A stretch of 22,781 nt of DNA from the UHGV virus genome UHGV-1752254; one strand, written 5' to 3'. Source of the DNA: a virus. The notes beneath the pieces are model-generated. The model saw only the letters and a program-made list of their open reading frames with translations, ran no database searches and was not told the DNA's origin. Below are positions 2,868-18,199 of the stretch, one piece after another. Each line of letters starts with the position of its first letter. Position 1 is the first letter of the stretch. Position numbers and translations under genes: made by a program.

Positions 2868-3127
2868 ATGAAGAATAATAAGTATTGGCCCCCTTCTGGG
2901 GACATGTTCATACTACTAAGCTTCAGAAGTGGTTTAAATCATCAAATTGACCTTAATTTTCGATAAGTCTTATTTCATTTCTTTGCGCCACATCTGGCGC
3001 GCATCAAATAACGCCACGCAAAGGGCATCTGCGGATGCCGGTGCTTTTGACGGGGTGTTTTTTACGGGCCGCTGGTGGCCATTTTTTGTTTCCATTACAC
3101 AGCGCCCGCATCTGCGAGGTGGGGGTT

Positions 3128-3343
3128 ATGAAATCCATGGATAAGTTAACAACGGGTGTCGCCTATGGCACCTCCGCAGGCAGTGCTGGCTACTGGTTTT
3201 TACAGTTGCTCGATAGAGTAACTCCGTCACAGTGGGCTGCAATCGGTGTGCTGGGTAGTCTGGTATTTGGCCTGCTGACGTACCTGACAAACCTTTATTT
3301 CAAGATTAAAGAAGATAAGCGCAAGGCTGCGAGAGGTGAATAA
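3128..3343 (+). CDS. S: Class II holin (pinholin), phage 21 S-like, with dual-start motif
   Basis: 71-aa product [71 protein letters not shown]: two TM helices and a charged C-terminus. Met1-Lys-Ser-Met4 gives the antiholin/holin dual starts (ATG 3128 and ATG 3137). G-rich RBS upstream. The track ORF 3035..3343 is the same frame with an unlikely upstream start. Confidence 0.9.
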
Positions 3344-4301: not shown

Positions 4302-4438
4302 AATCTTAACTACAATATGATTCATTTTGATGATTGTTTCATAAGGAACAGTGAAGTAAGATCTAAGAGGAGTTAAATTTTATACAGTATAATCATAATA
4401 TTGCAGCAAGGTGGTTATAATTGAAAGAATATTTAGAT

Positions 4439-5896
4439 ATGAATACATCTCATGTAAGAGTTGTTACTCATATGTGTGGGTTCCTGGTTTGGCTCTATAG
4501 TCTTTCAATGTTGCCACCAATGGTTGTAGCATTGTTTTATAAAGAAAAAAGCCTGTTCGTTTTCTTTATAACTTTCGTTATATTTTTTTGCATTGGTGGC
4601 GGAGCGTGGTATACAACTAAGAAATCTGGCATTCAATTACGTACCCGTGATGGGTTTATTATAATTGTAATGTTTTGGATTTTGTTTTCTGTTATTAGTG
4701 CATTCCCTTTATGGATTGACTCAGAACTTAATTTAACGTTCATTGATGCTCTGTTTGAAGGGGTTTCTGGAATAACAACAACAGGAGCAACTGTAATTGA
4801 TGATGTTAGTTCATTACCTCGGGCATATTTGTACTATCGGTCACAGTTAAATTTTATAGGTGGTTTAGGAGTTATTGTTCTGGCGGTTGCTGTATTGCCA
4901 TTATTGGGTATTGGTGGTGCAAAGCTTTATCAGTCAGAAATGCCGGGGCCATTTAAGGATGACAAACTCACTCCCCGCCTGGCCGATACGTCACGGACAC
5001 TGTGGATAACTTATTCTTTATTAGGTATTGCTTGTATTGTCTGTTATAGACTTGCAGGAATGCCTTTGTTTGATGCTATTTGTCACGGGATTTCCACAGT
5101 TTCGCTTGGTGGTTTCTCAACTCATAGCGAGAGTATCGGATATTTTAATAACTATTTGGTTGAGCTGGTGGCTGGTTCTTTTTCCCTGCTATCGGCTTTC
5201 AACTTCACTCTTTGGTATATTGTTATTAGCAGGAAAACGATAAAACCTTTAATCAGAGATATTGAACTTCGTTTCTTTCTGTTAATAGCCTTAGGGGTGA
5301 TCATTGTTACCTCTTTCCAGGTCTGGCATATAGGTATGTATGACTTGCATGGAAGTTTTATTCATTCGTTTTTTCTTGCCAGCTCCATGCTCACTGATAA
5401 TGGTTTAGCTACGCAGGATTATGCAAGTTGGCCCACGCACACGATAGTGTTTTTGCTGTTGTCAAGTTTCTTTGGGGGATGTATAGGTTCAACTTGTGGT
5501 GGAATTAAGTCACTTCGATTTCTTATACTTTTCAAACAAAGCAAACACGAGATAAATCAGCTTTCTCATCCCAGAGCGTTGTTGAGTGTAAATGTAGGAG
5601 GGAAGATAGTTACAGATCGTGTAATGAGGTCTGTATGGAGTTTCTTTTTTCTTTATACTCTCTTCACGGTGTTTTTTATACTGGTGTTAAATGGTATGGG
5701 ATATGATTTTCTTACATCATTTGCAACAGTGGCTGCATGTATTAATAATATGGGATTAGGTTTTGGGGCTACTGCATCGTCATTCGGAGTGCTTAATGAC
5801 ATTGCAAAATGTTTAATGTGCATAGCTATGATTCTTGGTCGCCTTGAAATTTATCCTGTTATTATATTGTTTTCAGGTTTTTTTTGGCGCTCCTAA
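4439..5896 (+). CDS. trkG: Trk-system K+ uptake protein, TrkH/TrkG family
   Basis: 485-aa polytopic membrane protein from ATG 4439, starting MNTSHVRVVTHMCGF as I recall Rac-prophage TrkG. An in-frame TTG at 4421 with an AAGGTGG RBS is an alternative start. Several glycine-rich selectivity-filter-like motifs (TTTGATV, GGLGV, SLGGFS, GSTCGG, NNMGLG). The gene and its upstream region are visibly AT-rich relative to the flanks. Confidence 0.9.
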   Translation: MNTSHVRVVTHMCGFLVWLYSLSMLPPMVVALFYKEKSLFVFFITFVIFFCIGGGAWYTTKKSGIQLRTRDGFIIIVMFWILFSVISAFPLWIDSELNLTFIDALFEGVSGITTTGATVIDDVSSLPRAYLYYRSQLNFIGGLGVIVLAVAVLPLLGIGGAKLYQSEMPGPFKDDKLTPRLADTSRTLWITYSLLGIACIVCYRLAGMPLFDAICHGISTVSLGGFSTHSESIGYFNNYLVELVAGSFSLLSAFNFTLWYIVISRKTIKPLIRDIELRFFLLIALGVIIVTSFQVWHIGMYDLHGSFIHSFFLASSMLTDNGLATQDYASWPTHTIVFLLLSSFFGGCIGSTCGGIKSLRFLILFKQSKHEINQLSHPRALLSVNVGGKIVTDRVMRSVWSFFFLYTLFTVFFILVLNGMGYDFLTSFATVAACINNMGLGFGATASSFGVLNDIAKCLMCIAMILGRLEIYPVIILFSGFFWRS

Positions 5897-5982
5897 TATA
5901 TGGCTGATTTATAATTGTGAGTTTAATATTATGTTGACTCACTCATTGATCCAATACCTAACTTTACCAGCAACCCCTCCGT

Positions 5983-6018
5983 CCCCAGTAGCACTGGCTG
6001 CTGGGGTGCGTTTTATTC
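5983..6018 (+). terminator. Possible weak terminator after trkG
   Basis: Stem CCCCAG (5983-5988) / CTGGGG (6001-6006) with a 12-nt loop, followed by TGCG and TTTTATT. The U-tract is offset, so this is weak. Confidence 0.3.
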
Positions 6019-6033
6019 ATAAAGCAAGGCTGT

Positions 6034-6825
6034 ATGAGCGAGAAATTAAAGATAGTCTATCGCCCATTACAAGAATTGTCACCGTATGCGCACAACGCCA
6101 GGACGCACAGCCCTGAGCAGGTGGCACAACTGGTAGAAAGTATTAAGCAATTCGGCTGGACTAATCCGGTGCTGATTGACGAAAAGGGCGAAATTATTGC
6201 GGGTCACGGTCGTGTTATGGCGGCTGAAATGCTCAAAATGGATTCTGTTCCGGTCATTGTTCTGTCTGGCCTGACGGATGAGCAGAAAAAGGCGTACCGC
6301 CTGGCAGATAATCGCCTGCCGATGAATGCTGGCTGGGATGAAGATCTGTTGCGGATGGAGCTGTCGGACCTAATCAATGCTGATTTTGATGTCTCCCTGA
6401 CAGGCTTCATCCCGACAGAAATTGATGAACTGTTGACGGATGTTTTGCCCGGTACAGGAAATGAGGAGGAGCCGTATACGACGAAAATTGATACGCCTGT
6501 TTATGAGCCGTCGGGCGGTAAACCGGATATCAGTGAACTGTACGACGATACGAAAACTCAGGAGCTGATCAGCCGGATACGTTCGGCGTCCCTTGAGCCT
6601 GATATTGAGAAATTCCTCCTGTGTGCGGCAGAACGTCACACGGTGTTTAATTTCAGCAGAATTGCGGACTATTACGCTCACGCCCCCTCTGAAATTCAGT
6701 GTTTTTTCGAGGAGTCGGCGCTGGTGATCATTGATTATCAGCAGGCTATTGAAAATGGATTTGTCCGGATGACGCAGCGCATGGTGGAGATCATGCATGG
6801 TGGTGAGGAGGAGGAATATGCGTGA
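6034..6825 (+). CDS. ParB-like nuclease-domain (ParB/Srx fold) protein
   Basis: 263-aa product. The N-terminal ~100 aa carry ParB N-terminal domain hallmarks (YRPLQELSPYAHNARTHSPEQV...PVLIDEKGEIIAGHGRVMAA...RLADN). Acidic, poorly characterised C-terminal half. Occupies the position of ynaK next to trkG in Rac-type prophages. Confidence 0.85.
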   Translation: MSEKLKIVYRPLQELSPYAHNARTHSPEQVAQLVESIKQFGWTNPVLIDEKGEIIAGHGRVMAAEMLKMDSVPVIVLSGLTDEQKKAYRLADNRLPMNAGWDEDLLRMELSDLINADFDVSLTGFIPTEIDELLTDVLPGTGNEEEPYTTKIDTPVYEPSGGKPDISELYDDTKTQELISRIRSASLEPDIEKFLLCAAERHTVFNFSRIADYYAHAPSEIQCFFEESALVIIDYQQAIENGFVRMTQRMVEIMHGGEEEEYA

Positions 6826-7750
6826 TGATTTTTGCGCCTTTATTCTGACTCACGGGCGACCGGACAAAGTTCTGACTTACCGGACGTTGCGTCGTGCTGG
6901 CTATACCGGGAAAATTTTTATCGTTGTTGATGATGAAGATAAGACACGGAATCAGTACATGGCTGAATTTGGTGAACAGGTGCTGGTGTTTTCCAAAGCC
7001 GATATCGCCAGTCGTTTTGACGAAGCCGATAATTTCTGTGACCGCCGCTCAATTTTTTACGCCCGTAATGCCTGTTTCGACCTGGCAAAACTGGTCGGGT
7101 GTAAATACTTCATTCAGCTCGATGATGATTATCACGAGTTCCAGTTTCGGGTGGATCGCAACTATGACCAGGCCTATTTTCCGATAAGGAAACTGGATGC
7201 GATCCTTTCTGAAATGCTGGCGTACTACGAATCAATACCTGCTCTTTCCATCGCTATGTCGCAGGGCGGGGATTTTCTTGGTGACAATGGCGGCCATGCT
7301 TCGTGGGTGAAACGCAAGGCAATGAACAGCTTTATCTGTTCGGTTGATCGACCGTTCTCATTCATGGGGCGCATTAACGAGGATGTGAATACGTACACGA
7401 ATCTCGGTCGCTGTGGTGAATTGTTTATGACGATCGGTGCTGTCCAGTTAGGGCAGAAACAGACGCAGAAAAACAGCGGCGGAATGACCGAGCTGTATCT
7501 GGATTCCGGAACCTACGTTAAAAGTTTTTACTCCGTCATGTATGCGCCGTCGTGCGTAAAAATCTCACTGATGGGTGCCAGCCATAAACGCATTCACCAT
7601 CAGGTCACCTGGAACAACGCTGCAGTAAAAATCCTTCACGAAAAATACAGGAAGAAGACACCCTGCATATCAATGGGGGTGACAAATGATTCCGTATTCG
7701 AAAGTCGAGTCTCTGGCAGCGTGCCGGATGACTGCACAACAAATCGCTGA
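6818..7750 (+). CDS. Hypothetical protein with GT-A-fold (family-2-like) glycosyltransferase signature
   Basis: ATG 6818 is preceded by GGAGGAGGAGG and overlaps the ParB-like stop by 8 nt. The track ORF starts at an upstream in-frame ATG 6797. Motifs spaced as in GT2-type enzymes: FILTHGR (res ~8-14), IVVDDED (~35-41), IQLDDDY (~99-105, DXD-like). No obvious TM segments. Function is inferred from motifs only. Confidence 0.6.
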   Translation: MRDDFCAFILTHGRPDKVLTYRTLRRAGYTGKIFIVVDDEDKTRNQYMAEFGEQVLVFSKADIASRFDEADNFCDRRSIFYARNACFDLAKLVGCKYFIQLDDDYHEFQFRVDRNYDQAYFPIRKLDAILSEMLAYYESIPALSIAMSQGGDFLGDNGGHASWVKRKAMNSFICSVDRPFSFMGRINEDVNTYTNLGRCGELFMTIGAVQLGQKQTQKNSGGMTELYLDSGTYVKSFYSVMYAPSCVKISLMGASHKRIHHQVTWNNAAVKILHEKYRKKTPCISMGVTNDSVFESRVSGSVPDDCTTNR

Positions 7751-7937
7751 CGTTCTGGATGTTGATCTGAACCGACTGAAAGAAAATCGGGAAGCAATGA
7801 CAGATTTTTATGCGGCCATCCGTAAGGGCAGAGCGAAAGGTGAAGCCGAGTTACGAGCGGCATTGTTTAAGCTTGCCAGAAAAGGGGATGCCTTTGCTCT
7901 GCGCGAACTACTCAGGGTGGATAAAAATCAGGACTAA
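7686..7937 (+). CDS. Small HTH-like DNA-binding protein upstream of terS
   Basis: 83-aa ORF. GGGGGTG RBS-like upstream of ATG 7686; an internal ATG at 7728 is an alternative start. Helix-turn-helix-like segment (TAQQIADVLDVDLNRL). Its 5' end overlaps the 3' end of the preceding gene by 65 nt. Confidence 0.5.
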   Translation: MIPYSKVESLAACRMTAQQIADVLDVDLNRLKENREAMTDFYAAIRKGRAKGEAELRAALFKLARKGDAFALRELLRVDKNQD

Positions 7938-7940
7938 CTG

Positions 7941-9035
7941 ATGAGCAGACCGGACTGGGGGGCGTTGCAGCAGGAGTATATTGCTGAATACACCCGCTCC
8001 GGTATATCTCCGGTGGCATGGTGTGAAGCAAGGGGACTGAATTACGCAACAGCCCGTCGTTACATCAAAAAAACTCCGAAAAATGCGCAGACAGAAATGT
8101 GCAAAACTGCGCAAAAAAGTGCGCAGAAAAAATCTGCGCAGACTGCACAAAAGCGGAACGAAAAATCTCAGGAAAAAAAGCCAGTATTCGATGCGGGCCT
8201 GAATGAGGGCGACGCGGAGGAATTTTCGTTCTGTCCCGATGAATTCGGCATTTCTGACCAGCAGGCTAAGTTTGCGATGCTTGTTGCTCAGGGTAAAAAG
8301 CCGACAGAGGCGTACCGACTAGCCGGTTATGAGGGGCAAGGTGCGACAGCTAACAGCAACGCCAGTCGTATGCTTAGAAATGCCAGGGTTTTTCGCGCTA
8401 TCAGCTACTTCCGCAATCAGTACCAGAAACGCTATACCGCAGACCTGGATTTACTAGTGAGTCAGTTGATGGCTATTGTCCTGGCCGACCCCAATCAGCT
8501 TGCACAATTTCGCCGTGTTAACTGCCGTTATTGCTGGGGCGAGAATCATCTCTACCAGTGGCGCGATATAGCAGAATTCGACAAGGCAGCGGCGCAGGCT
8601 TCCAGAGATGGCAAACCCGAACCGGAATATGGAGGCCTCGGCTTTGTTGATAACGCCATACCCAATCCGGACTGCCCGAAGTGCTGCGGTGAGGGAACGG
8701 GACAGCTTTATATGGCTGATACCACTCTGCTTGATGGGGATGCGCGGCAATTATATGCAGGGGCAAAATTCGGAAAATTCGGCGTTGAGATCCTGCTGGA
8801 GGATAAGGCTGCCGCCCGGCGTGAATTGTTGCGTTTGCTTTCTGCTGGCGGGGCTTTATGTGCAGATAAGCGGCTACAGGAACTGGAAATTGAACGGCGC
8901 AGAATGGAAAACCAGAAGCTGCGCAAAGAGATCGAAACGGTGGAAGATAATGAACATCCCCAGCCTGTGGCGATCAATATTAATGTGGTTGATGCCAGAG
9001 TAAGGAGTGATGAAGATGATCTCTCCGACGCTTAA
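7941..9035 (+). CDS. Terminase small subunit
   Basis: 364-aa product with an N-terminal HTH (ISPVAWCEARGLNYATARRYIKK) and a central TerS-like motif (FCPDEFGISDQQAKFAMLVAQGKKPTEAYRLAGYEG...ANSNASRMLRNARV). Directly upstream of the large terminase gene. Confidence 0.75.
   Translation: MSRPDWGALQQEYIAEYTRSGISPVAWCEARGLNYATARRYIKKTPKNAQTEMCKTAQKSAQKKSAQTAQKRNEKSQEKKPVFDAGLNEGDAEEFSFCPDEFGISDQQAKFAMLVAQGKKPTEAYRLAGYEGQGATANSNASRMLRNARVFRAISYFRNQYQKRYTADLDLLVSQLMAIVLADPNQLAQFRRVNCRYCWGENHLYQWRDIAEFDKAAAQASRDGKPEPEYGGLGFVDNAIPNPDCPKCCGEGTGQLYMADTTLLDGDARQLYAGAKFGKFGVEILLEDKAAARRELLRLLSAGGALCADKRLQELEIERRRMENQKLRKEIETVEDNEHPQPVAININVVDARVRSDEDDLSDA
8084..8149 (+). repeat. Cluster of six TGCGCA-type hexamers inside terS (candidate pac site)
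   Basis: TGCGCA at 8084, 8108, 8120 and 8135, plus variants TGTGCA at 8098 and TGCACA at 8144, spaced 9-15 bp and each in an A-rich context. Encodes the low-complexity peptide NAQTEMCKTAQKSAQKKSAQTAQK. Confidence 0.5.
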
Positions 9036-10317
9036 TGTGCCTCAGGCGCGATTTCTTTCAATGCCCCATAAATTTAAAGCCTATATTGCTGGTTTTGGCT
9101 CGGGCAAAACATGGGTTGGGTGTGGCGGCATATGCAAGGGGATTTGGGAGCATCCAGGTATAAATCAGGGATATTTTGCGCCAACGTATCCCCAAATTCG
9201 CGATATTTTTTACCCTACAGTGGAAGAAGTTGCTGCTGACTGGGGATTGAACGTAAAAATTAATGAGGGAAATAAAGAGGTTCACTTTTATTACGGACGC
9301 CAGTATCGGGGAACCACTATCTGCAGATCGATGGAGAAGCCACAAACGATCGTCGGTTTCAAAATTGGTAATGCGTTGGTGGATGAACTGGACATTTTGC
9401 CGAAGGAAAAAGCCAGAACGGCGTGGCGCAAGATAATTGCGCGTATGCGTTATAAGATTGATGGACTTCGCAACGGTATTGACGTTACAACCACGCCGGA
9501 AGGATTCAAATTTGTCTACGAGCAGTTTGTTAAAGCCGTGCGTGAAAAAACAGAGCTGGCCTCACTGTATGGTCTGGTGCAGGCATCTACTTTCGATAAT
9601 GAAAAGAACCTGCCAGCAGATTACATTCCTTCGCTTCTTGAGTCATACCCTCCAGAGCTGATTAAAGCCTATCTTCGAGGACAGTTTACTAACCTGACAA
9701 GTGGTACTGTTTACCATCAGTTTGACCGGAAACTGAATAATTGCGAAGAAGTGGAGCAGCCAGGGGAGCCGATTTATATTGGGATGGATTTTAACGTTGG
9801 AAAGATGGCGGGGGTCGTCCATGTACTGCGTTTGGGGCTTCCATGTGCGGTAACTGAAATCATCAATGCCTACGATACACCGGATATGATCCGCATCATT
9901 AAAGAACGCTTCTGGCTGTATGACGGGAATGATTACCGGAAAGTGAGGGAGATTTATATTTATCCAGATGCTTCCGGAGATTCCAGAAAATCAAGTAACG
10001 CAAGTACGACGGATATAGCCCAGCTTAAGCAGGCTGGTTTTAACGTTGTGGTGAACAGCTCGAACCCGCCAGTAAAAGATCGCGTTAACTCAATGAATGC
10101 AATGTTCTGCAATGCCAATGGCGAACGTCGCTATAAAGTTAATGTGAAGCGTTGTCCGGTATATGCCGAATCTCTGGAGCAACAGGTCTGGGATGATAAG
10201 GGGGAGCCTGATAAAAAATCTGGCAATGATCACCCGAATGATGCCGGAGGTTATTTCATCGTTAAGCAATTCCCTATTGTCAAACCGACCGGAAGAGTCA
10301 CATCACTTCGGATTTAA
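9016..10317 (+). CDS. Terminase large subunit
   Basis: Walker A motif GFGSGKT near the N-terminus and terminase-like ATPase/nuclease organisation. TAAGGAG RBS 8 nt upstream of ATG 9016. The track ORF starts at an in-frame GTG at 9007, too close to the RBS. Confidence 0.9.
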   Translation: MISPTLNVPQARFLSMPHKFKAYIAGFGSGKTWVGCGGICKGIWEHPGINQGYFAPTYPQIRDIFYPTVEEVAADWGLNVKINEGNKEVHFYYGRQYRGTTICRSMEKPQTIVGFKIGNALVDELDILPKEKARTAWRKIIARMRYKIDGLRNGIDVTTTPEGFKFVYEQFVKAVREKTELASLYGLVQASTFDNEKNLPADYIPSLLESYPPELIKAYLRGQFTNLTSGTVYHQFDRKLNNCEEVEQPGEPIYIGMDFNVGKMAGVVHVLRLGLPCAVTEIINAYDTPDMIRIIKERFWLYDGNDYRKVREIYIYPDASGDSRKSSNASTTDIAQLKQAGFNVVVNSSNPPVKDRVNSMNAMFCNANGERRYKVNVKRCPVYAESLEQQVWDDKGEPDKKSGNDHPNDAGGYFIVKQFPIVKPTGRVTSLRI

Positions 10318-10319
10318 TT

Positions 10320-11726
10320 ATGGCTGATATATCAACACCCAACCTCGACTATAACGATATGCTGGAGGCGTGGGATATTAACGACGCACTGATGGGCGGT
10401 ACGCTTGAAATGCGCAGGCAGGGGGAAAATTATCTCCCAAAATGGCCTAACGAAGATGAAGACGCTTATAAAAAACGCCTGTCTGTGGCTACGCTACTTC
10501 CTGTGTATGAAGAAAGCATCAAGCAAAATATTGGGCGCATATTTGCAGAGCCGACAGTATTGAGTGAGGAAACGCCGGCAAAAATCAGGGAATATGCAGA
10601 AAATATCGACATGGAGGGAAGCCGACTGGATGTGTGGGCGCAGCAATTTTTCAGCCTCGCATTTCAGTATGGTGTGGCACATGCGCTGGTGGACTATCCA
10701 CGAACGGATATGAAAGAGATTCGGACAAAAGCCGATGAAAACGCGGCCGGTAGTCGTCCGTACGTTACGATGCTGAATCCACGCCAGGTTATTGGATGGA
10801 AATCGAAAGTTGAAAAAGGGAAAGTTGTTCTCACTGATTTGCGTATAAAAGAGGTCATCATTATTGATGGTGATGATTTCGGGCAGAAGAAGGTGGAGCA
10901 GATCCGCCATATTATGCCCCGTCGAGTTGAAATTTATCGACGTAGCGAAGGCACTAATGGCGAATCTGTCTGGACGCTTCATGAGTCATGGAATACCAGC
11001 CGTGATGATATTCCTCTGGTAACACTGTACACGAAGAAAACAGGATTTATGCGTGGTACACCGCCATTGCTTAATCTTGGCTTGCTGAATATCAAGCACT
11101 GGCAAAGCCAGAGCGAGCAGGACAATATTCTTCATGTTGCCCGCGTTCCATTGCTGGTGGCCTACGGGCTGGACAGGAATGAAGAACTGACGGTTGGTGC
11201 ATCCACCGCTACGATTTTTGAGGACAGAACAAAAAATGGCCTCGAATATGTTGAACATAGTGGCGCAGCGATAGAATCTGGCGAAACATCACTTGAGAAG
11301 CTGGAAAATCAGATGCGTCATGCCGGCGCTAAACTTCTGCGTGCTGAAAATACATCCACCAAATCTGTTGATCAGACTAATGAAGAGCGAATGCAGGAAA
11401 ACTCGCCGCTTTATAGAATGGCGAACTCCCTCGAAGATGCCCTCGATAATATTCTCCAGATAATGGCGGAATGGATCGGAGAGAGTTGCGGTGGCAATGT
11501 GGATGTGCGCACTGAACTGGATGTATCTGCCCAGGTGTTTGACTCATCCTCCGCGCTGGCTGTTCAGTCATTGCGTCAGGGCGGTGATATACGTCAGATT
11601 GATGCGATTCGGGTGTTGCAGGCGTTGAAATTTATCGATCAGGATTCCCGTCCAGAGGAAGTGATCGATGAATTAAAAAATCAGAGTGTAATGCTGATGG
11701 AAATCAATGATGCAAACCGTGAATGA
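10320..11726 (+). CDS. Portal protein
   Basis: 468-aa ORF immediately after TerL (3-nt gap), with acidic portal-like composition. Canonical position in a terminase-portal-head module. Confidence 0.8.
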   Translation: MADISTPNLDYNDMLEAWDINDALMGGTLEMRRQGENYLPKWPNEDEDAYKKRLSVATLLPVYEESIKQNIGRIFAEPTVLSEETPAKIREYAENIDMEGSRLDVWAQQFFSLAFQYGVAHALVDYPRTDMKEIRTKADENAAGSRPYVTMLNPRQVIGWKSKVEKGKVVLTDLRIKEVIIIDGDDFGQKKVEQIRHIMPRRVEIYRRSEGTNGESVWTLHESWNTSRDDIPLVTLYTKKTGFMRGTPPLLNLGLLNIKHWQSQSEQDNILHVARVPLLVAYGLDRNEELTVGASTATIFEDRTKNGLEYVEHSGAAIESGETSLEKLENQMRHAGAKLLRAENTSTKSVDQTNEERMQENSPLYRMANSLEDALDNILQIMAEWIGESCGGNVDVRTELDVSAQVFDSSSALAVQSLRQGGDIRQIDAIRVLQALKFIDQDSRPEEVIDELKNQSVMLMEINDANRE

Positions 11727-12822
11727 ACGGCTGCGTGATGAATCAATTGCTCATGCAGTCTGGATATCCCGCTATAGCACTGGCGTGGCTGCCAGAATGG
11801 TGAAAATACTGAATGACAGCGATGCGGAACTTACTGCTCGCCTGCTGATAGCACTGGACAGCCTCGATCCAGGTAGTTTTACCGTTAAGCGCCTGGAGTC
11901 ACTTCTGGCGAGCGTCAGAGAGGTTAACCGCACTGCTATTAACAGCATGTTTACCAGTCTCTACGGAGAGCTGAACGAGCTGGCAATTTATGAGGCTGGT
12001 TATCAGTTAAGTCTGTTTGATTCTATGCTACCTGATTTTGTTGCTGATGTTCACCCTCTGGTTGGTATCTCTCCTGATGCACTTTATGCCGCTGCAATGG
12101 CGCGACCATTTCAGGGACGACTGCTCAGTGAGTGGGCCTCAGATCTTGAGGCGGATCGGCTCAGACGCATAACAAATACAGTGCGTCAGGGTTTTTTGCT
12201 GGGGGATACCAATGAGCAGATCGCAAGAAAAATTCGGGGACATGTCAGTAAGGGATTTCAGGATGGTGCATTGCAGATGAGCCGGGCTAATGCGGCCAGC
12301 ATTGCAAAAACAGCGGTTGGACATCTTGCTGCTACTGCCCGTGAGAGTTTTGCCAGCGCGAATAATGATTTGATTAAGGGTAAGCAATGGTTATCAACGC
12401 TTGATAATCGTACTACGCCACAATGTCGAATCAGGGATCGCCTCAAATATACGCTGAATAATAAACCTGTAGGTCACAGCGTGCCTTATTTGCAGGGGCC
12501 GGGAAAAATTCATTTCTGCTGCCGCTCAACGGAAACGTTCATTCTGAAATCAGCGAAGGAACTGGGTATTGATGTTCGCGATATTTCCCCGGCTGAGCGG
12601 GCCAGCATGGATGGCGTGGTGGCCGGAGATACAACCTACAGGGAATGGTTTTTGCGTCAGCCTTACACCAGACAAAAACAGATTGTGGGGGAAACCCGAG
12701 CAAAGCTGATTCGGGATGGTGGTATGTCGCCAGATGAATTTTACACCGATAAAGGCGAATGGCTGACGCTGAAGCAGCTCCGTGAGCGTGATGCACAGGT
12801 ATTCAGAAAAGCAGGGATTTAA
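11707..12822 (+). CDS. Head morphogenesis protein (Mu F-like / SPP1 gp7-like minor head protein)
   Basis: 371-aa ORF overlapping the portal 3' end by 20 nt. Position after the portal gene and size fit this family. Confidence 0.7.
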   Translation: MMQTVNERLRDESIAHAVWISRYSTGVAARMVKILNDSDAELTARLLIALDSLDPGSFTVKRLESLLASVREVNRTAINSMFTSLYGELNELAIYEAGYQLSLFDSMLPDFVADVHPLVGISPDALYAAAMARPFQGRLLSEWASDLEADRLRRITNTVRQGFLLGDTNEQIARKIRGHVSKGFQDGALQMSRANAASIAKTAVGHLAATARESFASANNDLIKGKQWLSTLDNRTTPQCRIRDRLKYTLNNKPVGHSVPYLQGPGKIHFCCRSTETFILKSAKELGIDVRDISPAERASMDGVVAGDTTYREWFLRQPYTRQKQIVGETRAKLIRDGGMSPDEFYTDKGEWLTLKQLRERDAQVFRKAGI

Positions 12823-12841
12823 ATAAATCATTTATTACAAC

Positions 12842-12868
12842 AGGCTACCTTCGGGTGGCCTTTTTTAT
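12842..12868 (+). terminator. Intrinsic terminator (UUCG tetraloop) after the head morphogenesis gene
   Basis: 8-bp stem AGGCTACC / GGTGGCCT (one G-U pair) with loop TTCG, followed by TTTTTATT. Confidence 0.6.
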
Positions 12869-12926
12869 TGCTGCGATCCGGATGGTGAGCAGCGTAACTG
12901 TCGGAAGACTTAAACCAGGTACTAAT

Positions 12927-13691
12927 ATGAAACTGAAAACGGTCGAGATTAACGGAAAACAATACGCAGAAATTGATACTGCTGGCCTGCCAGTTTATGT
13001 GCACGACGATGGTAAAGAAATTGGCTTCGATGCACCGCTGGCGACAAAAAAAATTACAGAGCTTAATAGCGAGGCAAAAAATCATCGCCTGGCTAAAGAA
13101 GCTGCAGAGGAAAAACTGGCTAAGTTTGCCGCTATCGAAGACCCGAAGAAGGCGATCGAGGCACTGGAAATGCTGTCAAAAATCGACCAGAAAAAGCTGC
13201 TCGATGCGGGACAGGTTGACCAGGTTAAGGCAGAAATTACGAAAAATTTTCAGCAGCAATTAGATGAAGAAAAGCAACGCTCTCAGATGCTGGAGAAGCA
13301 GCTTTACGATTCTATGATTGGCGGTAGTTTTGCGGGTTCAAAATATATTGCCGATAAAATTGCGATCCCGGCAGATTTATTACAAGCCCGCTTCGGGCAG
13401 GCATTCAAAGTGGAAGAAGGGAGGATCGTTGCTTATGACGCTTCCGGCAACAAAATTTATTCCCGCGCGAAGCCTGGCGAACTGGCGCAGTTTGATGAGG
13501 CGCTGGAGTTCCTTGTCGAAAATTACCCTCAGAAAGACTACATCCTGAAAGCCAGTGGCAACAATGGCGGCGGCTCCCGTCCGACACAGCATGATATTGG
13601 TCAGAAAACGATGAAACGCTCTGCTTTTGATGCACTGGATGTTGCAGGTAAGCAAAACGCATTGAAAGACGGTATCACAATCGTTGATTAA
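12927..13691 (+). CDS. Head scaffolding protein
   Basis: 254 aa from ATG 12927; the track ORF starts at an upstream GTG that lies inside the terminator. Highly charged, predicted alpha-helical/coiled-coil sequence, sitting between the head-morphogenesis and major capsid genes. Confidence 0.6.
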   Translation: MKLKTVEINGKQYAEIDTAGLPVYVHDDGKEIGFDAPLATKKITELNSEAKNHRLAKEAAEEKLAKFAAIEDPKKAIEALEMLSKIDQKKLLDAGQVDQVKAEITKNFQQQLDEEKQRSQMLEKQLYDSMIGGSFAGSKYIADKIAIPADLLQARFGQAFKVEEGRIVAYDASGNKIYSRAKPGELAQFDEALEFLVENYPQKDYILKASGNNGGGSRPTQHDIGQKTMKRSAFDALDVAGKQNALKDGITIVD

Positions 13692-13789
13692 CACATTTGT
13701 CAGCTTCCGGATGGGAGCTGGTGTCAAGGCTGGATAGCTCATTACTCCATCTATTCACAATTACGCAAATTTTTAAGGAATATTTAATT

Positions 13790-14929
13790 ATGGCTGGAAA
13801 TACCCTGACCGGGTTGATCCCGACTATTTATACCGCCCTGGATGTTGTATCCCGTGAGCAGGTAGGTTTTATCCCTGCGGTAGCAAAAAACGCAAAAGCT
13901 GACGCCGCAGCAAAAGATCAGACGGTAACCGCGCCAGTTGCGCCTGAGGCGAAAACCGAAGATATCGTACCGGGGCCGTCAGCTCCGAATACCGGTGATC
14001 AAAATATTGGCACTGTTGATGTAAAAATTACTAAATCCAAAATGGCACCGGTTAAATGGAATGGTGAAGAACAACTGGCTCTTGGCCCTTCAGGGACTTA
14101 CAACACCATTCTGGCTGATCAGTTCAAGCAGGCTTTTCGCGCCCTTGCAAACGAGGTTGAGGCTGATCTTGGTGCGTTGTATTTCGGTGCTTCCCGCGCC
14201 GTGGGAACCGCAGGGACAACGCCGTTTGGTGTTAAAGATGATCTTTCTGATGCTGCTCTGGCTCGTCAGGTTCTGGAGGATAACGGCGCACCGACAACCG
14301 ATCTGCAGATGGTGCTTGGCTCCACTGCCATTGCTAATTTGCGCGGAAAACAGTCTGTATTGTTTAAAGTGAATGAATCCGGCACTGAACAGCTACTGCG
14401 TGAGGGCGTGTTGGGGCGTCTGGAGGGATTCAATATTCACAGTTCGGCAGGTGTGAAACGAGCGCCAAAGGTTGCTGCAACTGGTTATCTCGTGAATGGA
14501 GAGAAAAAAGAAGGCGATGTTCTTATTTCCATTGATACTGGTTCGGGGAGTATTTCTGCAGGTCAGATTGTTACGTTCGCTGGTGATCCGAATCAGTATG
14601 TTGTGGCAGCAGCGACCAGCAATCTGATTACTCTTGCAGCGCCCGGACTGCGTCAGGATCTGGCCGATGATACTGCCATCACAGTTGTTGGGGCCTTTAC
14701 GGCAAATATGGCGTTTGATCGCAACGCGTTTCTGCTGGCATCCCGTACTCCGGCAATGCCGGAAGGTGGCGATAATGCTGATGATGTAATGAATGTTACG
14801 GACCCGATTTCAGGGATTACGTTCCAGATTGCACTGTATCGTCAGTATCGCCAGGTGCGCTATGAAGTTGGACTGGCATGGGGTGTTTCATCAGTGAAGC
14901 CGGCACATGGTTGTCTGATTCTTGGTTAA
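13790..14929 (+). CDS. Major capsid protein
   Basis: 379 aa from ATG 13790, preceded by an AAGGAA RBS; the track ORF has an upstream extension. Follows the scaffold gene and is followed by a terminator. Size and composition fit a coat protein. Confidence 0.75.
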   Translation: MAGNTLTGLIPTIYTALDVVSREQVGFIPAVAKNAKADAAAKDQTVTAPVAPEAKTEDIVPGPSAPNTGDQNIGTVDVKITKSKMAPVKWNGEEQLALGPSGTYNTILADQFKQAFRALANEVEADLGALYFGASRAVGTAGTTPFGVKDDLSDAALARQVLEDNGAPTTDLQMVLGSTAIANLRGKQSVLFKVNESGTEQLLREGVLGRLEGFNIHSSAGVKRAPKVAATGYLVNGEKKEGDVLISIDTGSGSISAGQIVTFAGDPNQYVVAAATSNLITLAAPGLRQDLADDTAITVVGAFTANMAFDRNAFLLASRTPAMPEGGDNADDVMNVTDPISGITFQIALYRQYRQVRYEVGLAWGVSSVKPAHGCLILG

Positions 14930-14939
14930 ACATTCAAAC

Positions 14940-14962
14940 GGGGCTTCGGCCCCATTTTTAAT
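14940..14962 (+). terminator. Intrinsic terminator (UUCG tetraloop) after the major capsid gene
   Basis: GGGGC-TTCG-GCCCC hairpin (14940-14953) followed by ATTTTTAAT. Confidence 0.65.
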
Positions 14963-14971
14963 GGGGGACAT

Positions 14972-15148
14972 ATGGCCGGATTAACTAAAGAGCAAAGAGC
15001 ACAGCGTGAAGCCGCACAAAAAACGCAAATTGAGTTAGTGGTTATGGTGACCGATTATCAGATGTTTCCCGGCGCACCAACTATCGCTAATGTTCATCCT
15101 GATGAAGTTGACAACTGGAAGGCTATGGGCTGGAAAACTCAGGAGTAA
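14972..15148 (+). CDS. Small hypothetical protein (58 aa), absent from the ORF track
   Basis: ATG 14972 preceded by GGGGGA. Open frame giving MAGLTKEQRAQREAAQKTQIELVVMVTDYQMFPGAPTIANVHPDEVDNWKAMGWKTQE, with stop TAA at 15146-15148. Fills the otherwise non-coding gap between the capsid terminator and the next gene. Confidence 0.4.
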   Translation: MAGLTKEQRAQREAAQKTQIELVVMVTDYQMFPGAPTIANVHPDEVDNWKAMGWKTQE

Positions 15149-15151
15149 CAC

Positions 15152-15547
15152 ATGATCACTTACGTGACCTGTGATGACGTTGATAATGCGTTTGGGAACG
15201 CCTGGACGAGTGAGAACGCTAAAAATAAAGCTGTTTTAATGGCTAATGCCTGGCTTAATGGCTTCAACCTGAAAATTAACCCATCCCGTATTCCGGAAGA
15301 GGTAAAACTTGCGGGAGCATATGCAGCCAGAATTGCCTCATTCGGTAAGTTGTTTCAGCAGAAAAATGATTCTGGCGTTGTTATCAGTAAAGCCGTGTCG
15401 GCTGACGGGGTCAGTGTATCGAAATCATTTTCTGAGTTGCCAGCAAACAGCACTGCATTGCTTGAACCCGATTTACAGCTTGCGATAGCACTGCTGAAAC
15501 CGTACGGACTTAGTCGCTCACAAGTCAGGGTTGTGAGGGGGGGATAA
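15152..15547 (+). CDS. Putative head-tail connector / head completion protein
   Basis: 131-aa ORF with AGGAG RBS 6 nt upstream. First of four small genes between capsid and major tail. Role assigned by position. Confidence 0.5.
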   Translation: MITYVTCDDVDNAFGNAWTSENAKNKAVLMANAWLNGFNLKINPSRIPEEVKLAGAYAARIASFGKLFQQKNDSGVVISKAVSADGVSVSKSFSELPANSTALLEPDLQLAIALLKPYGLSRSQVRVVRGG

Positions 15548-15930
15548 TGGGGCTTCGTGAAGAGATTCAGTCAGAGGTTGCCGCTGCTTTTGATGAGGAT
15601 TTAGCGGACGCCGTGAGTGATTTTTCTGGTTCTTACGTTACGCACCGGCACTGGGATCCTGTGACGGAAACTGGCGGCGAATCCACCGCAATCTATACCG
15701 GGCGAGGCGTGTTGACACGTTATAAGCTGGGCAGAATTGATGGGATTAATATTTTGCATGGTGACCTTAAATTAACCGCTCTGGTATGCGAGGTTACGGA
15801 TAAACCAGCTGTCGACCATATTATTGAGATTTATGATCCTGTATCAAGGCAGTTACAACGATACGAGGTAATTACAGCAAGTGTAGATCCTTCCGCATCA
15901 GTTTACTCTATCCAGTTAAGGAGAGCGTAA
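15547..15930 (+). CDS. Putative head-tail joining / head closure protein
   Basis: 127-aa ORF whose start overlaps the upstream stop (TAATG). Role assigned by position. Confidence 0.45.
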   Translation: MGLREEIQSEVAAAFDEDLADAVSDFSGSYVTHRHWDPVTETGGESTAIYTGRGVLTRYKLGRIDGINILHGDLKLTALVCEVTDKPAVDHIIEIYDPVSRQLQRYEVITASVDPSASVYSIQLRRA

Positions 15931-16311
15931 ATGGCAAAGGCATGGGATATAGAACCGTCAATATTTGCCGGGATGATTGAGGAAGATGTAGGGCTGAAGA
16001 TTCGCTACATCGCTATTCAGATTCTTACTGCTATTGATATTGCTGCTCCGGTTGATACCGGACGTTTCAGAAATAACAACCTGGTGTCGTTACAGCATCC
16101 CGATTTTGGTATATCTGATAACGTGGATCCGAACGGTACGATTGCTGTTCAGCGTGGGATCGGGGTTATTTCGAAAGCTGCAAATTACGGAGTTATTTAT
16201 ATCCAGAATAACCTTCCTTATGCAGAGGCTCTTGAAAACGGTCATTCACAACAAGCGCCAACTGGCGTGTATGCCAACGCTTTTCATGGTGTTTTACAGG
16301 CTTACAAATGA
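15931..16311 (+). CDS. Putative tail completion protein (HK97 gp10-like)
   Basis: 126-aa ORF with AAGGAG RBS. The motif NNLPYAEALENGHSQQAP resembles the HK97 gp10 family as I recall it. Confidence 0.5.
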   Translation: MAKAWDIEPSIFAGMIEEDVGLKIRYIAIQILTAIDIAAPVDTGRFRNNNLVSLQHPDFGISDNVDPNGTIAVQRGIGVISKAANYGVIYIQNNLPYAEALENGHSQQAPTGVYANAFHGVLQAYK

Positions 16312-16700
16312 CGTTTACTGAAATCAGAAATACGGTTATTTCCAGAATGACGGCACAGACGATTATTGATGGAAAAGACGTATTGTATCCGAACGCGCCA
16401 ACGTTCGATCCTTCCGGTAAGTTAATCTGGGCGCGGTTAAGTAATATTCCCGGGCAGGCTGGAGTTAATGAAATTGGCGCGGGGCCGATTGTTTATCGCA
16501 CGGGGATAATCATTATTCAGTTATTTGTCCCCGCAGGTTCTGGTTCAAAACTCATTACTGAGACAGCCGATAAATTGCGGGAACTGTTTGAGTTTCAGGA
16601 TGACGATCGTCTCAGTTACCAGGCTGTTTCCTCAATAGCCGTTGGCGAAAAGAATGGCTGGTTCCAGCTTAATCTTCAAATTCCATATCGCGCGCTCTAG
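16308..16700 (+). CDS. Putative tail terminator / neck protein
   Basis: 130-aa ORF overlapping the upstream stop (ATGA), immediately before the major tail gene. Confidence 0.45.
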   Translation: MTFTEIRNTVISRMTAQTIIDGKDVLYPNAPTFDPSGKLIWARLSNIPGQAGVNEIGAGPIVYRTGIIIIQLFVPAGSGSKLITETADKLRELFEFQDDDRLSYQAVSSIAVGEKNGWFQLNLQIPYRAL

Positions 16701-16726
16701 CGCAATTAATGACATAGGAGGCTCCT

Positions 16727-17689
16727 GTGAGTTCAGGTGCAAAGGTTATCTCGGCATTTATCCGGGAGACGGTTGCAGGCACTACGCCAGCAAGTGGTGA
16801 CTGGAGTTTATTAAAACGCACAAGCTGGGGAGTAAAACCCACCCAGAATAAAGGCGAAAATAATGAGATTGGTGGCTCCCGGATGGCTCAGGGGGCGACG
16901 CCTGGCACTGTGGATGTCGGCGGTGATGTTGGTACCAAATTTCGCTGGGGTCAACATGATGATTTTCTTGCATCCTGTTTCGGCGCGGAATGGTCAGGCG
17001 ATTCTCTGACAATGGGGAATGAGCGAATAACATTTTCTCTGGCGACCTATGCGTCCGATGTCGGAATTGCCTCTGTCGTCAGAGGAGCGCAGGTTGGCTC
17101 ATGGAAAATGCAGATCCCTAACGACGGCGATATTACAGCGACCGTAACCTTTGCCGGACTGGACTGGGAATCAAAGGCCGATGATACGAATTTTATCAAA
17201 GGCGAACCTGTGGATAGTGCAGGAAAGCTACGTTATTCGTTTAAGGAGGTTTCAGCAGTAAGCCTGAATGGTGTTGCCGGAGGTAACGGTTTTTGTATCG
17301 ACAGTTTTGATATTCAGTTCGATAACAAACTCCAGACACAGCGTTGTATCGGGACTGGCTCGCCTTATGCAGGAGCAAATATTCCGACTACTTTTACACC
17401 GTCCGGTACGGTGACGCTTTCATGGTCTAAAGCCGCGTGGGAAATCTGGAGTAAAACACTGACTGGAGAAACAGTTCCGTTCAGCTTCACGCTTTCGAAT
17501 GGAGAGGGGGCATACACTTTCAGTTTCCCGAAGGTTCAGGTGTCAGGTGAATGGCCTGATGGGGGTAATAGCGACATTATCCAGGTTCAATTGAGCATTA
17601 CCGCAGCAGATGAAGCACCTACGATAACCAGAAAAAAAAATTCCCCGGCTGCCGTGATCGCAAAAGCCAGTGCTGAGGCGATTAGTTGA
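16727..17689 (+). CDS. Major tail (tube) protein
   Basis: 320-aa ORF from GTG 16727 with AGGAGG RBS 5 nt upstream. Gly/Thr/Ser-rich beta-type composition. Located just upstream of the chaperone-frameshift-tape-measure trio. Not lambda V-like. Confidence 0.7.
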   Translation: MSSGAKVISAFIRETVAGTTPASGDWSLLKRTSWGVKPTQNKGENNEIGGSRMAQGATPGTVDVGGDVGTKFRWGQHDDFLASCFGAEWSGDSLTMGNERITFSLATYASDVGIASVVRGAQVGSWKMQIPNDGDITATVTFAGLDWESKADDTNFIKGEPVDSAGKLRYSFKEVSAVSLNGVAGGNGFCIDSFDIQFDNKLQTQRCIGTGSPYAGANIPTTFTPSGTVTLSWSKAAWEIWSKTLTGETVPFSFTLSNGEGAYTFSFPKVQVSGEWPDGGNSDIIQVQLSITAADEAPTITRKKNSPAAVIAKASAEAIS

Positions 17690-17749
17690 TTTTCCGTTAT
17701 TCCTCCTGTGGTACTGCCCTACAGGGGGACGCATTGAATGAGGTTATGG

Positions 17750-18199
17750 ATGTTTATTCTTAATCAGAAAATTATCATTGGTGGAGAACGCTGGTTTACG
17801 CCAATGAAGGACTTAAAACCTGTAGACGGGTTAAAACTGTTGGTGGCAAGCAGCGATAACGATCAGTATCGCTCCCGTAATGCATTAATCCGTCGCCACA
17901 TTGAGAAAATGGATGCCAGTTTGCACGTCGGAACGAAGGAGTTTGATATTTCAAAGGTTTCCGAGGTGGATTCTGTTGATGATTTACTCATTGATAATGC
18001 CGCTCGTTATCTGCTGAAAGACTGGAAAGGGGTTGGTGAACTGGTTAATGGTGTTGAGGTTGCACTGGAATATACGGCAGAACGAGGGATCGCGCTGCTT
18101 AAGCAGAATCCAGAGTTGTACTGGCAGATCCTTGCAGAAGCAGCCAGCATCGCCCAGGGTAAAGAGCAGCAGAAGCAGGATACGATAAAAAAGCCATAG
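17750..18199 (+). CDS. Tail assembly chaperone (gpG-like)
   Basis: ORF between major tail and tape measure. Likely start ATG 17750 with GAGG 6 nt upstream; the track gives 17738. Ends 6 nt after a canonical slippery heptamer. Confidence 0.75.
   Translation: MFILNQKIIIGGERWFTPMKDLKPVDGLKLLVASSDNDQYRSRNALIRRHIEKMDASLHVGTKEFDISKVSEVDSVDDLLIDNAARYLLKDWKGVGELVNGVEVALEYTAERGIALLKQNPELYWQILAEAASIAQGKEQQKQDTIKKP
18187..18193 (+). other. Programmed -1 ribosomal frameshift site A_AAA_AAG
   Basis: Heptamer A AAA AAG sits in the zero frame of the gpG-like gene (codons AAA 18188-18190, AAG 18191-18193). The -1 frame is open from 18193 to the stop at 18507. Confidence 0.7.

Follow-up and report, generated by a model that had tools for sequence, protein, structure and literature searches.

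A ParB-like protein and a TAGT-family glycosyltransferase form a conserved two-component phage module that may glycosylate DNA

We analysed a 22,781-nucleotide stretch of the virus genome UHGV-1752254 (hereafter the window), which by its gene content is the late region of a lambdoid (Rac-type) Escherichia coli prophage. Within it, gene 1 (6034–6825) encodes a ParB-like protein and gene 2 (6818–7750) a glycosyltransferase of the TAGT family. We found that these two proteins constitute a conserved two-component module. Both protein families are already known, as are modules combining a ParB with a modification enzyme as a kind; what is new is a TAGT enzyme that has a strictly co-inherited, undescribed partner domain and no hydroxylase, the pair standing first in the packaging operon in bacterial lineages and an archaeal virus alike. 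We tentatively favour, with a probability of about 45%, a function in late-expressed glycosylation of phage DNA, in which the ParB-like protein would activate the enzyme or clamp it on double-stranded DNA.

Co-inheritance was assessed in both directions. Using the enzyme alone to fetch loci, from IMG/VR and from a collection of one genome per species, we found that an open reading frame (ORF) with the partner domain precedes the enzyme gene in the same orientation in 80 of 80 and 77 of 78 testable loci of the two sets. Reciprocally, a TAGT gene was present in all 79 loci fetched from IMG/VR by the partner C-terminal domain alone. The two genes abut or overlap in 79/80 and 74/78 of the enzyme-fetched loci and in 73/77 testable loci of the partner-fetched set. 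The pairing pointed out in the window by an earlier sequence-only reading, which had noted that the second gene overlaps the stop of the first behind a ribosome-binding site, is present as claimed, and the linkage is strict in both directions.

The hosts comprise Enterobacteria, Bacteroidota, Clostridia, Veillonella, Desulfovibrionaceae, Chlorobi, Saccharibacteria, Acidobacteriota, Verrucomicrobiota, Kiritimatiellae, a Pelagibacter relative and an archaeon; across them, close enterobacterial relatives aside, the enzymes are 46–59% identical to the window protein. The gene order also recurs among isolated viruses. Lactobacillus phage c5 has cos, a ParB-like ORF1, the enzyme (ORF2), two small ORFs, the terminase large subunit (TerL) and the portal, while phage phi jlb1 has ParB, enzyme, terminase small subunit (TerS), TerL and portal. 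The order is Orf1-Orf2-TerL in Nocardia phage NTR1 and RusA, ParB, enzyme, TerS, TerL and portal in a Porphyromonas phage at only 27% identity. In the haloarchaeal virus HHTV-2, genes 21 and 22 overlap and TerL lies 3 kb downstream. Vibrio phage pv27, one of the 191-kb Vibrio phages (locus L246, 6459–7888), has a stand-alone 139-residue partner domain (E = 1e-45) preceding the enzyme gene, and here the pair sits in a replication module with primase, exonuclease and helicase genes, not beside annotated packaging genes or a terminase.

Profile hidden Markov model searches placed both proteins in known families with scores above threshold. The gene 2 product matched Pfam PF20691 (TAGT) over residues 8–222 (121.1 bits; cut-off, 27.5; E = 7.6e-35) and phrog_842 (1.1e-103), and all of the gene 2 homologues listed carry PF20691. 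The sequence-only reading had proposed a GT-A-fold glycosyltransferase on the basis of the motifs FILTHGR (residues 8–14), IVVDDED (35–41) and IQLDDDY (99–105). These motifs are real, occupy catalytic-type positions and are conserved in homologues; together, the PF20691 match, the GT-A (nucleotide-diphospho-sugar transferase) fold and the conserved DDD bear the proposal out. Among 174 distinct homologues, R14, D38, D41, D102-D103-D104, N187 and D189 are 97–100% conserved, and E188 is conserved in at least 80%. An R...DDD...EDY/F signature has been reported for phage GT-A DNA glycosyltransferases and JGT (bioRxiv 10.1101/2023.12.21.572611), and the window enzyme carries it, with E188-D189-V190 at its end. 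The enzyme is clearly under strong constraint and is predicted to be active.

C-terminal to the GT-A core is a family-specific basic subdomain, most of which the Pfam TAGT match does not reach; it is a candidate for binding the acceptor. Basic enzymes are the rule across the family (median isoelectric point (pI), 8.7). Relatives at 45–53% identity are fused to a class-I S-adenosylmethionine methyltransferase, a sulfotransferase (PF03567), a second TAGT or an unassigned N-terminal P-loop (GxxxxGKS) domain, and one partner protein has a methyltransferase N-terminal to its ParB domain. These fusions suggest that the products may be methylated, sulfated, phosphorylated or disaccharides in some lineages. 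The fused domains look like sugar-tailoring additions, resembling enzymes of DNA hypermodification clusters (PMC13229309), although such additions fit glycans on DNA or on protein alike and do not decide between the two.

The gene 1 product starts with a ParB/Srx nucleoside triphosphate (NTP)-binding domain, which a disordered linker connects to a conserved domain at the C-terminus. That the protein belongs to the ParB/Srx superfamily (PF02195) is shown by the ParB/Srx fold and by a match to Pfam ParB_N above the threshold (28.9 bits versus 26.3; E = 1.2e-6); it also matched phrog_620 (8.5e-91). A profile alignment to Noc/ParB set GHGR (residues 57–60) on the GERR of box II and N93 on the box III Asn. 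Box II shows no variation at G57, G59 and R60, and conservation of H58 reaches at least 90%. Judged by box II (GxxR) and box III (Asn), the N-terminal domain is of the NTP-binding type; hydrolysis is uncertain, as the catalytic Glu of GERR is replaced by His. This domain most resembles the N-terminal domains of phage DNA methyltransferases (phrog_498, 1.2e-50; PADLOC MTase_II, 2.2e-38).

In the AlphaFold2 (AF2) model, the nucleotide-binding domain (residues 1–135) is followed by a linker whose residues 136–170 have predicted local distance difference test scores below 50, and the C-terminal domain is helical. A linear motif in the linker is near-invariant: among 115 diverse partner proteins, Y148, P155 and Y157 are 99% conserved and K151 is 87% conserved. 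The C-terminal domain is a previously undescribed helical domain of about 100 residues, mostly fused to a ParB NTP-binding domain. At 12 of the 79 partner-domain loci (about 15%), the ORF with the C-terminal domain lacks a ParB domain; a contig boundary truncates two of these, and at another a separate ORF with a ParB domain lies immediately upstream. A profile search with the C-terminal domain matched mostly stand-alone proteins of about 130 residues that have no ParB domain. We also considered gene 1 as a partition ParB and rejected this: TIGR00180 scored 38.5 bits against a cut-off of 58.45, Pfam revealed no helix-turn-helix family, the N-terminus (MSEKLKIVY) has no LG[KR]GL ParA-binding motif and no parA gene was found in the window.

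The two genes are coupled at their junction. Gene 2 starts 3–6 nt past the Shine-Dalgarno sequence GAGGAGGAGGAA and overlaps gene 1 by 8 nt, so that the gene 1 stop codon falls within gene 2. A mechanical ORF list offered an alternative ATG at 6797; this was ruled out because 26/26 homologues begin MRDDF, which sets the start at 6818. RefSeq names gene 1 'ynaK: ParB/Srx family N-terminal domain-containing protein' and gene 2 'GREB1-related protein'. At least 80% of the 2.2-kb region is covered in 867 of 5,426 complete E. coli genomes (about 16%). In one strain (NZ_CP159152.1), an ISKpn26 (IS5-like) element is inserted within the stretch matching window positions 5800–8000. Coordinates of all features are collected in Table 1.

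Table 1. Features of the gene pair, its products and its surroundings, in window coordinates unless another locus is named.
Feature	Position	Strand	Details
Gene 1, full-length form of ynaK	6034..6825	+	263 aa; ORF, Pfam ParB_N, phrog_620, RefSeq name
ParB/Srx-type nucleotide-binding domain, residues 1–135	6034..6438	+	box II G57-H58-G59-R60 (canonical GERR), box III D92-N93
Conserved C-terminal domain, residues ~145–245	6466..6768	+	constant partner of the enzyme; undescribed domain
Linear motif Y148-[ST]-x-K151-x3-P155-x-Y157	6475..6504	+	in disordered linker; near-invariant
Coupling junction	6805..6825	+	Shine-Dalgarno GAGGAGGAGGAA (6805–16), gene 2 ATG 6818–20, gene 1 TGA 6823–25; read from sequence
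Gene 2, TAGT-family (PF20691) GT-A glycosyltransferase	6818..7750	+	310 aa; ATG 6818, TGA 7748–50
GT-A core of gene 2, residues 1–185	6818..7372	+	
D102-D103-D104, DXD metal/NDP-sugar motif of GT-A core	7121..7129	+	98–99% conserved in 174 distinct homologues
Family-specific basic C-terminal subdomain, residues 186–285	7373..7672	+	pI 9.4; GGMTxLY...GTYVKSFY...RIHH motifs conserved
Terminator-like hairpin closing AT-rich trkG insert	5983..6006	+	upstream boundary of module
orf83, small TerS-like gene	7686..7937	+	83 aa; phrog_309 'terminase small subunit' 8.3e-23
Terminase small subunit gene	7941..9035	+	Pfam Terminase_2, Terminase_6N, Terminase_6C (terminase pair)
Terminase large subunit gene	9007..10317	+	Pfam Terminase_2, Terminase_6N, Terminase_6C (terminase pair)
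Fusion relatives	L115 189–1739		P0128, P0130, P0167, P0164, P0147, P0148, P0151, P0186, P0199

The window runs through DUF1367, YbcO, the Q antiterminator, two tRNAs, holin, lysozyme, Rz/Rz1 and trkG to gene 1, and from gene 2 through a small TerS-like ORF, TerS, TerL, portal and a Mu-F-like gene to the coat and tail genes. The terminase genes are tightly spaced behind the pair, which therefore heads the packaging operon. Across diverse loci, the TerL start lies within 4 kb downstream of the pair in at least 65 of the 94 with enough sequence, and these terminases belong to at least four unrelated families, so the acceptor of the enzyme cannot be a specific packaging protein. The small orf83 overlaps the 3' end of gene 2 by 65 nt, and its family (phrog_309) directly follows the enzyme gene in 40/117 diverse loci; the window phage has, besides orf83, a separate TerS of 364 residues. 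This conserved neighbour, which may act as a second DNA-recognition subunit or as a regulator, probably belongs with packaging and not with glycosylation. The two tRNA genes, Thr (TGT; 2200–2275) and Gly (TCC; 2279–2353), lie on the plus strand between the Q antiterminator (1184–1846) and the holin (3035–3343).

The sequence-only reading had placed the pair in a cargo or moron slot between lysis and packaging genes. Our data did not bear this out. The guanine-plus-cytosine (GC) content of the pair (47–52%) is the same as that of the phage backbone and packaging genes, no promoter-like site was found in the spacer between trkG and gene 1, and a scan of 5700–8100 was no richer in such sites than shuffled sequence. 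Furthermore, the ParB-glycosyltransferase-terminase order is kept across phyla. It is trkG that fits the description: this gene has a GC content of 35–40% between neighbours at 45–52%, and forms an AT-rich insert (4421–6006) that includes its own terminator-like hairpin just ahead of gene 1. We therefore consider trkG, and not the pair, to be a moron. In many related prophages, the pair is present without trkG. As its presence varies among lambdoid phages, the pair counts as an accessory of the late operon, although an ancient one.

The Rac prophage of E. coli K-12 retains a remnant of this arrangement. In the K-12 type strain 8A (locus L166, 3235–3838), window segments 6034–6287 and 17738–18199 are represented, and an 11.56-kb deletion fuses position 6287 to 17848. 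The 87-residue ynaK thus corresponds to no more than the initial ~85 codons of gene 1, and the enzyme, terminase, portal and head genes are entirely lost. The suggestion that ynaK and a degraded ydaY occupy the equivalent Rac position is thus right for ynaK, which is the 5' part of gene 1, but not for ydaY. The latter is the 3' part of a tail-assembly gene brought there by the deletion, and we rejected it as a glycosyltransferase remnant.

We next considered what the enzyme may modify. No TET/JBP dioxygenase or ThyS-type hydroxymethylase was found in the window, and no recurrent or annotated hydroxylase gene accompanied the pair in the genomes and neighbourhoods examined. Upstream of the pair, no gene recurs among diverse loci, those seen being Q, DnaB, lysis genes, RusA and a few DNA methylases. 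At a few loci, genes for PAPS-reductase-domain proteins (at one locus together with DUF3440), GDP-mannose dehydratase/epimerase and C5- or N6/N4-DNA methylases occur within 5 kb upstream, none of them recurrently. A tblastn search with gene 2 gave no match in T-even phages at E ≤ 1e-5. Since gene 2 has no hydroxymethylase companion and is distant from the T-even enzyme, its acceptor is unlikely to be phage-made 5-hydroxymethylcytosine (5hmC), 5-hydroxymethyluracil (5hmU) or glucosyl-hmC. With no hydroxymethyl-pyrimidine made, the sugar would have to go to a canonical group of DNA or to an equally universal target. The acceptor must either occur alike in E. coli, Lactobacillus, Nocardia, Bacteroides and Haloarcula or be encoded by the module, and the neighbours are not conserved, which leaves a nucleic acid, a universal metabolite or the partner.

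We favour DNA because the TAGT precedent is DNA, because the ParB domain is of the DNA-methyltransferase type and DNA modification activated by a ParB has a precedent, and because the pair lies beside packaging or replication genes and the enzyme subdomain is basic. Under this interpretation, the pair is probably transcribed with the late genes from the head of the packaging operon. The partner would serve as an NTP-gated clamp or activator that keeps the enzyme on double-stranded phage DNA, with the basic C-terminal subdomain of the enzyme providing the DNA contact. The enzyme would then move a sugar from a nucleoside diphosphate (NDP)-sugar to replicated phage DNA, before or during packaging, and the sugar may mark that DNA or shield it against host nucleases. 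In one version of this scheme, the sugar would be put directly on a canonical part of DNA (for example, an exocyclic amine or ring nitrogen) without prior hydroxymethylation, the C-terminal domain and the ParB clamp presenting the DNA; we take this version seriously while judging it rather unlikely.

Several observations weigh against DNA glycosylation. Its main weakness is chemical: as no hydroxymethyl acceptor is made, it demands either new chemistry on canonical DNA or a non-DNA acceptor, and every characterised TAGT acceptor is a hydroxyl group. TET/JBP and ThyS are absent from the 25 commonest Pfam families among 122 upstream ORFs of diverse loci, and the complete genomes of c5 (31.8 kb) and phi jlb1 (38 kb) contain no annotated dioxygenase, hydroxymethylase or DNA methyltransferase. 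A Pfam search of gene 1 gave no DNA-binding domain, and the partner is strongly acidic everywhere (gene 1: pI 4.5, net charge about −25; median pI of 4.65, with acidic proteins in every lineage). The AF2 model of the C-terminal third of the enzyme is of low confidence and unreliable, and late transcription is deduced from gene order alone. In the literature searched, sugar-modified DNA is not reported from phages with the pair. Finally, the TAGT domain of GREB1 is an O-GlcNAc transferase that glycosylates a protein, ER-alpha (PMC7968844).

The chief rival is protein glycosylation, which we consider unlikely. The enzyme would modify either a universal protein or its own partner, for example on Tyr148, Tyr157 or the Ser/Thr at 149 within the linker motif; once it carries the sugar, the ParB-like protein would have a function in packaging or would be injected. 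Besides GREB1, glycogenin, which glycosylates its own tyrosine, provides a precedent. However, the invariant linear motif is equally explained as a docking peptide, the nucleotide-binding domain is of the type coupled to DNA methyltransferases and in Vibrio phages the pair lies within a replication gene cluster.

Improbable, in our view, is that the enzyme performs classical TAGT chemistry on foreign 5hmC or 5hmU DNA of co- or superinfecting phages, leading to exclusion or to sensitisation to type IV restriction, or acts on rare oxidised bases. All characterised DNA-acting TAGTs do require 5hmC, 5hmU or a sugar already in place (PMC13216743; bioRxiv 10.1101/2023.12.21.572611), an anti-phage activity of prophage glycosyltransferases has been raised as a possibility (bioRxiv 10.1101/2023.12.21.572611), and the pair is common in E. 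coli prophages (the 867/5,426 genomes above). Yet the position at the head of the late operon and the tight coupling to the terminase speak against expression in the lysogen, c5 carries the pair with no annotated integrase, the enzyme has no PADLOC match, and the fact that it stays 46–59% identical in hosts that include haloarchaea, where hmC phages are not known, suggests a substrate found everywhere.

We give equally little credence to a role as a packaging-initiation accessory, with the ParB-like protein marking or processing pac/cos or bridging DNA to the terminase and the enzyme acting on a nucleotide, a nucleotide-sugar or another small molecule. Placement beside cos and terminase genes is constant, ParB/Srx domains bind various NTPs and some are kinases (SerK, Srx) (PMC12704722), and a TerS-like small gene follows the pair in the 40/117 loci noted above. 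Against this, the pv27 pair lies away from annotated packaging genes, about 15% of partners are without a ParB domain, the partner is acidic with no DNA-binding domain, and many lambdoid phages package DNA without the pair. Least probable of all is the horizontally acquired defence or anti-restriction cargo, independent of late phage functions, of the sequence-only reading: some lambdoid phages lack the pair, in E. coli it adjoins different terminases with or without trkG, and the slot also holds a true moron, but besides its backbone GC content, the missing promoter-like site and a position conserved with the packaging genes across bacterial phyla and in an archaeal virus, defence-system models gave no match, as PADLOC-DB 2.0 left the enzyme and orf83 unmatched and matched gene 1 only to the N-domain of a type II methyltransferase model.

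These findings bear on TAGTs that recent surveys left aside. Association with a TET/JBP dioxygenase gives the TAGTs their name without being universal among them: solitary TAGTs, whose function was called undefined, were found in 288/753 glycosyltransferase-bearing phages of one survey (PMC13216743), and in another about 65% of ~25,000 glycosyltransferase contigs had no adjacent 5mYOX or ThyS and were left uninterpreted (bioRxiv 10.1101/2023.12.21.572611). Given the co-inherited partner domain, such enzymes are not truly solitary, and the window supplies an E. coli-native example of the type. The vague RefSeq annotations become a defined two-component system that is testable in E. coli: K-12, which lacks the pair, offers a clean background, and seemingly intact prophage copies are found in many natural isolates. 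The sequence-only reading could match the pair to no named system; this stands for the module, on which we found no experimental work in the literature searched, but not for the individual proteins, each of which belongs to a named family (PF20691/GREB1-related; ynaK, ParB/Srx).

If the acceptor is ordinary DNA, the module would represent a new class of post-replicative DNA glycosylation. Its range would take in temperate phages from many bacterial phyla, one or more archaeal viruses and, through their prophages, roughly a sixth of the E. coli strains sequenced. There would then be consequences for how restriction is evaded, for artefacts in the sequencing of prophage DNA and for tools that glycosylate DNA at chosen sites, and the 2026 finding of ParB-like activators of DNA-modifying enzymes would reach a second enzyme class. 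If the acceptor is a protein, the module would be a widespread phage protein-glycosylation system.

Among known systems, gene 2 is related to the TAGT family by sequence membership, GT-A fold and signature. This family includes the T2/T6 beta-glucosyl-HMC-alpha-glucosyltransferase, which adds a second glucose to glucosyl-hmC (PMC13216743), TET/5mYOX-associated GT-A enzymes from viral metagenomes and JGT, the base-J glucosyltransferase of trypanosomes; metavirome enzymes of the TAGT type glycosylate 5hmC with diverse sugars and share a signature with JGT (bioRxiv 10.1101/2023.12.21.572611). Many family genes, like gene 2, lie in phages near ParB-like and terminase genes, which have been noted as glycosyltransferase neighbours (bioRxiv 10.1101/2023.12.21.572611; PMC13229309). 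In contrast to these enzymes, gene 2 has no TET/JBP, ThyS-type hydroxymethylase or first-step glucosyltransferase companion, and relative to the distant T-even enzyme it adds the conserved basic C-terminal subdomain and the strictly co-inherited partner domain. Human GREB1, reflected in the RefSeq name, shares the Pfam catalytic domain but is a 1,949-residue eukaryotic cytoplasmic protein with a protein substrate, no ParB-like partner and no phage or DNA context.

The idea that ParB proteins direct modification enzymes during packaging was proposed by Iyer et al. in 2013, as quoted by Burke et al. (PMC8256090). O'Toole et al. (2026) found that the thymine dioxygenase 5mYOX176 requires a ParB-like protein, ParB176, on double-stranded DNA in a cognate-specific manner, and that the commonest neighbours of such dioxygenases are glycosyltransferases (31%), ParBs (27%) and terminases (19%) (PMC13229309). 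The resemblance to our pair extends from the setting, a ParB-like gene beside a post-replicative DNA-modifying enzyme and often near terminase genes, to the layout of nucleotide-binding domain, disordered linker and C-terminal domain with no DNA-binding domain. The client there is a dioxygenase, whereas here it is a glycosyltransferase with no dioxygenase present; here also about 15% of partners have no ParB domain, and an activator role would follow by analogy. In the 7-deazaguanine and phosphorothioate systems, too, a ParB/Srx-fold NTPase (DpdA/DpdB, DndB) is accessory to a DNA-modifying enzyme, but the enzymes and chemistry are unrelated to the pair, and the genes belong to cellular defence islands rather than to phage late operons.

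Closest to the ParB domain of gene 1 are the fusions of ParB_N to DNA methyltransferases (phrog_498; PADLOC MTase_II; PF02195+PF01555), which are likewise phage or prophage genes and often lie just upstream of terminase genes. Kaljevic et al. (2025) reported that such fusions of a ParB-fold domain to a DNA methyltransferase are enriched in prophages and that the ParB-fold domain binds CTP, ATP or GTP (PMC12704722). In those proteins the ParB domain is joined to the enzyme itself, which transfers a methyl group, whereas the module described here joins it to an adaptor domain and leaves the sugar-transferring enzyme as a separate, translationally coupled protein.

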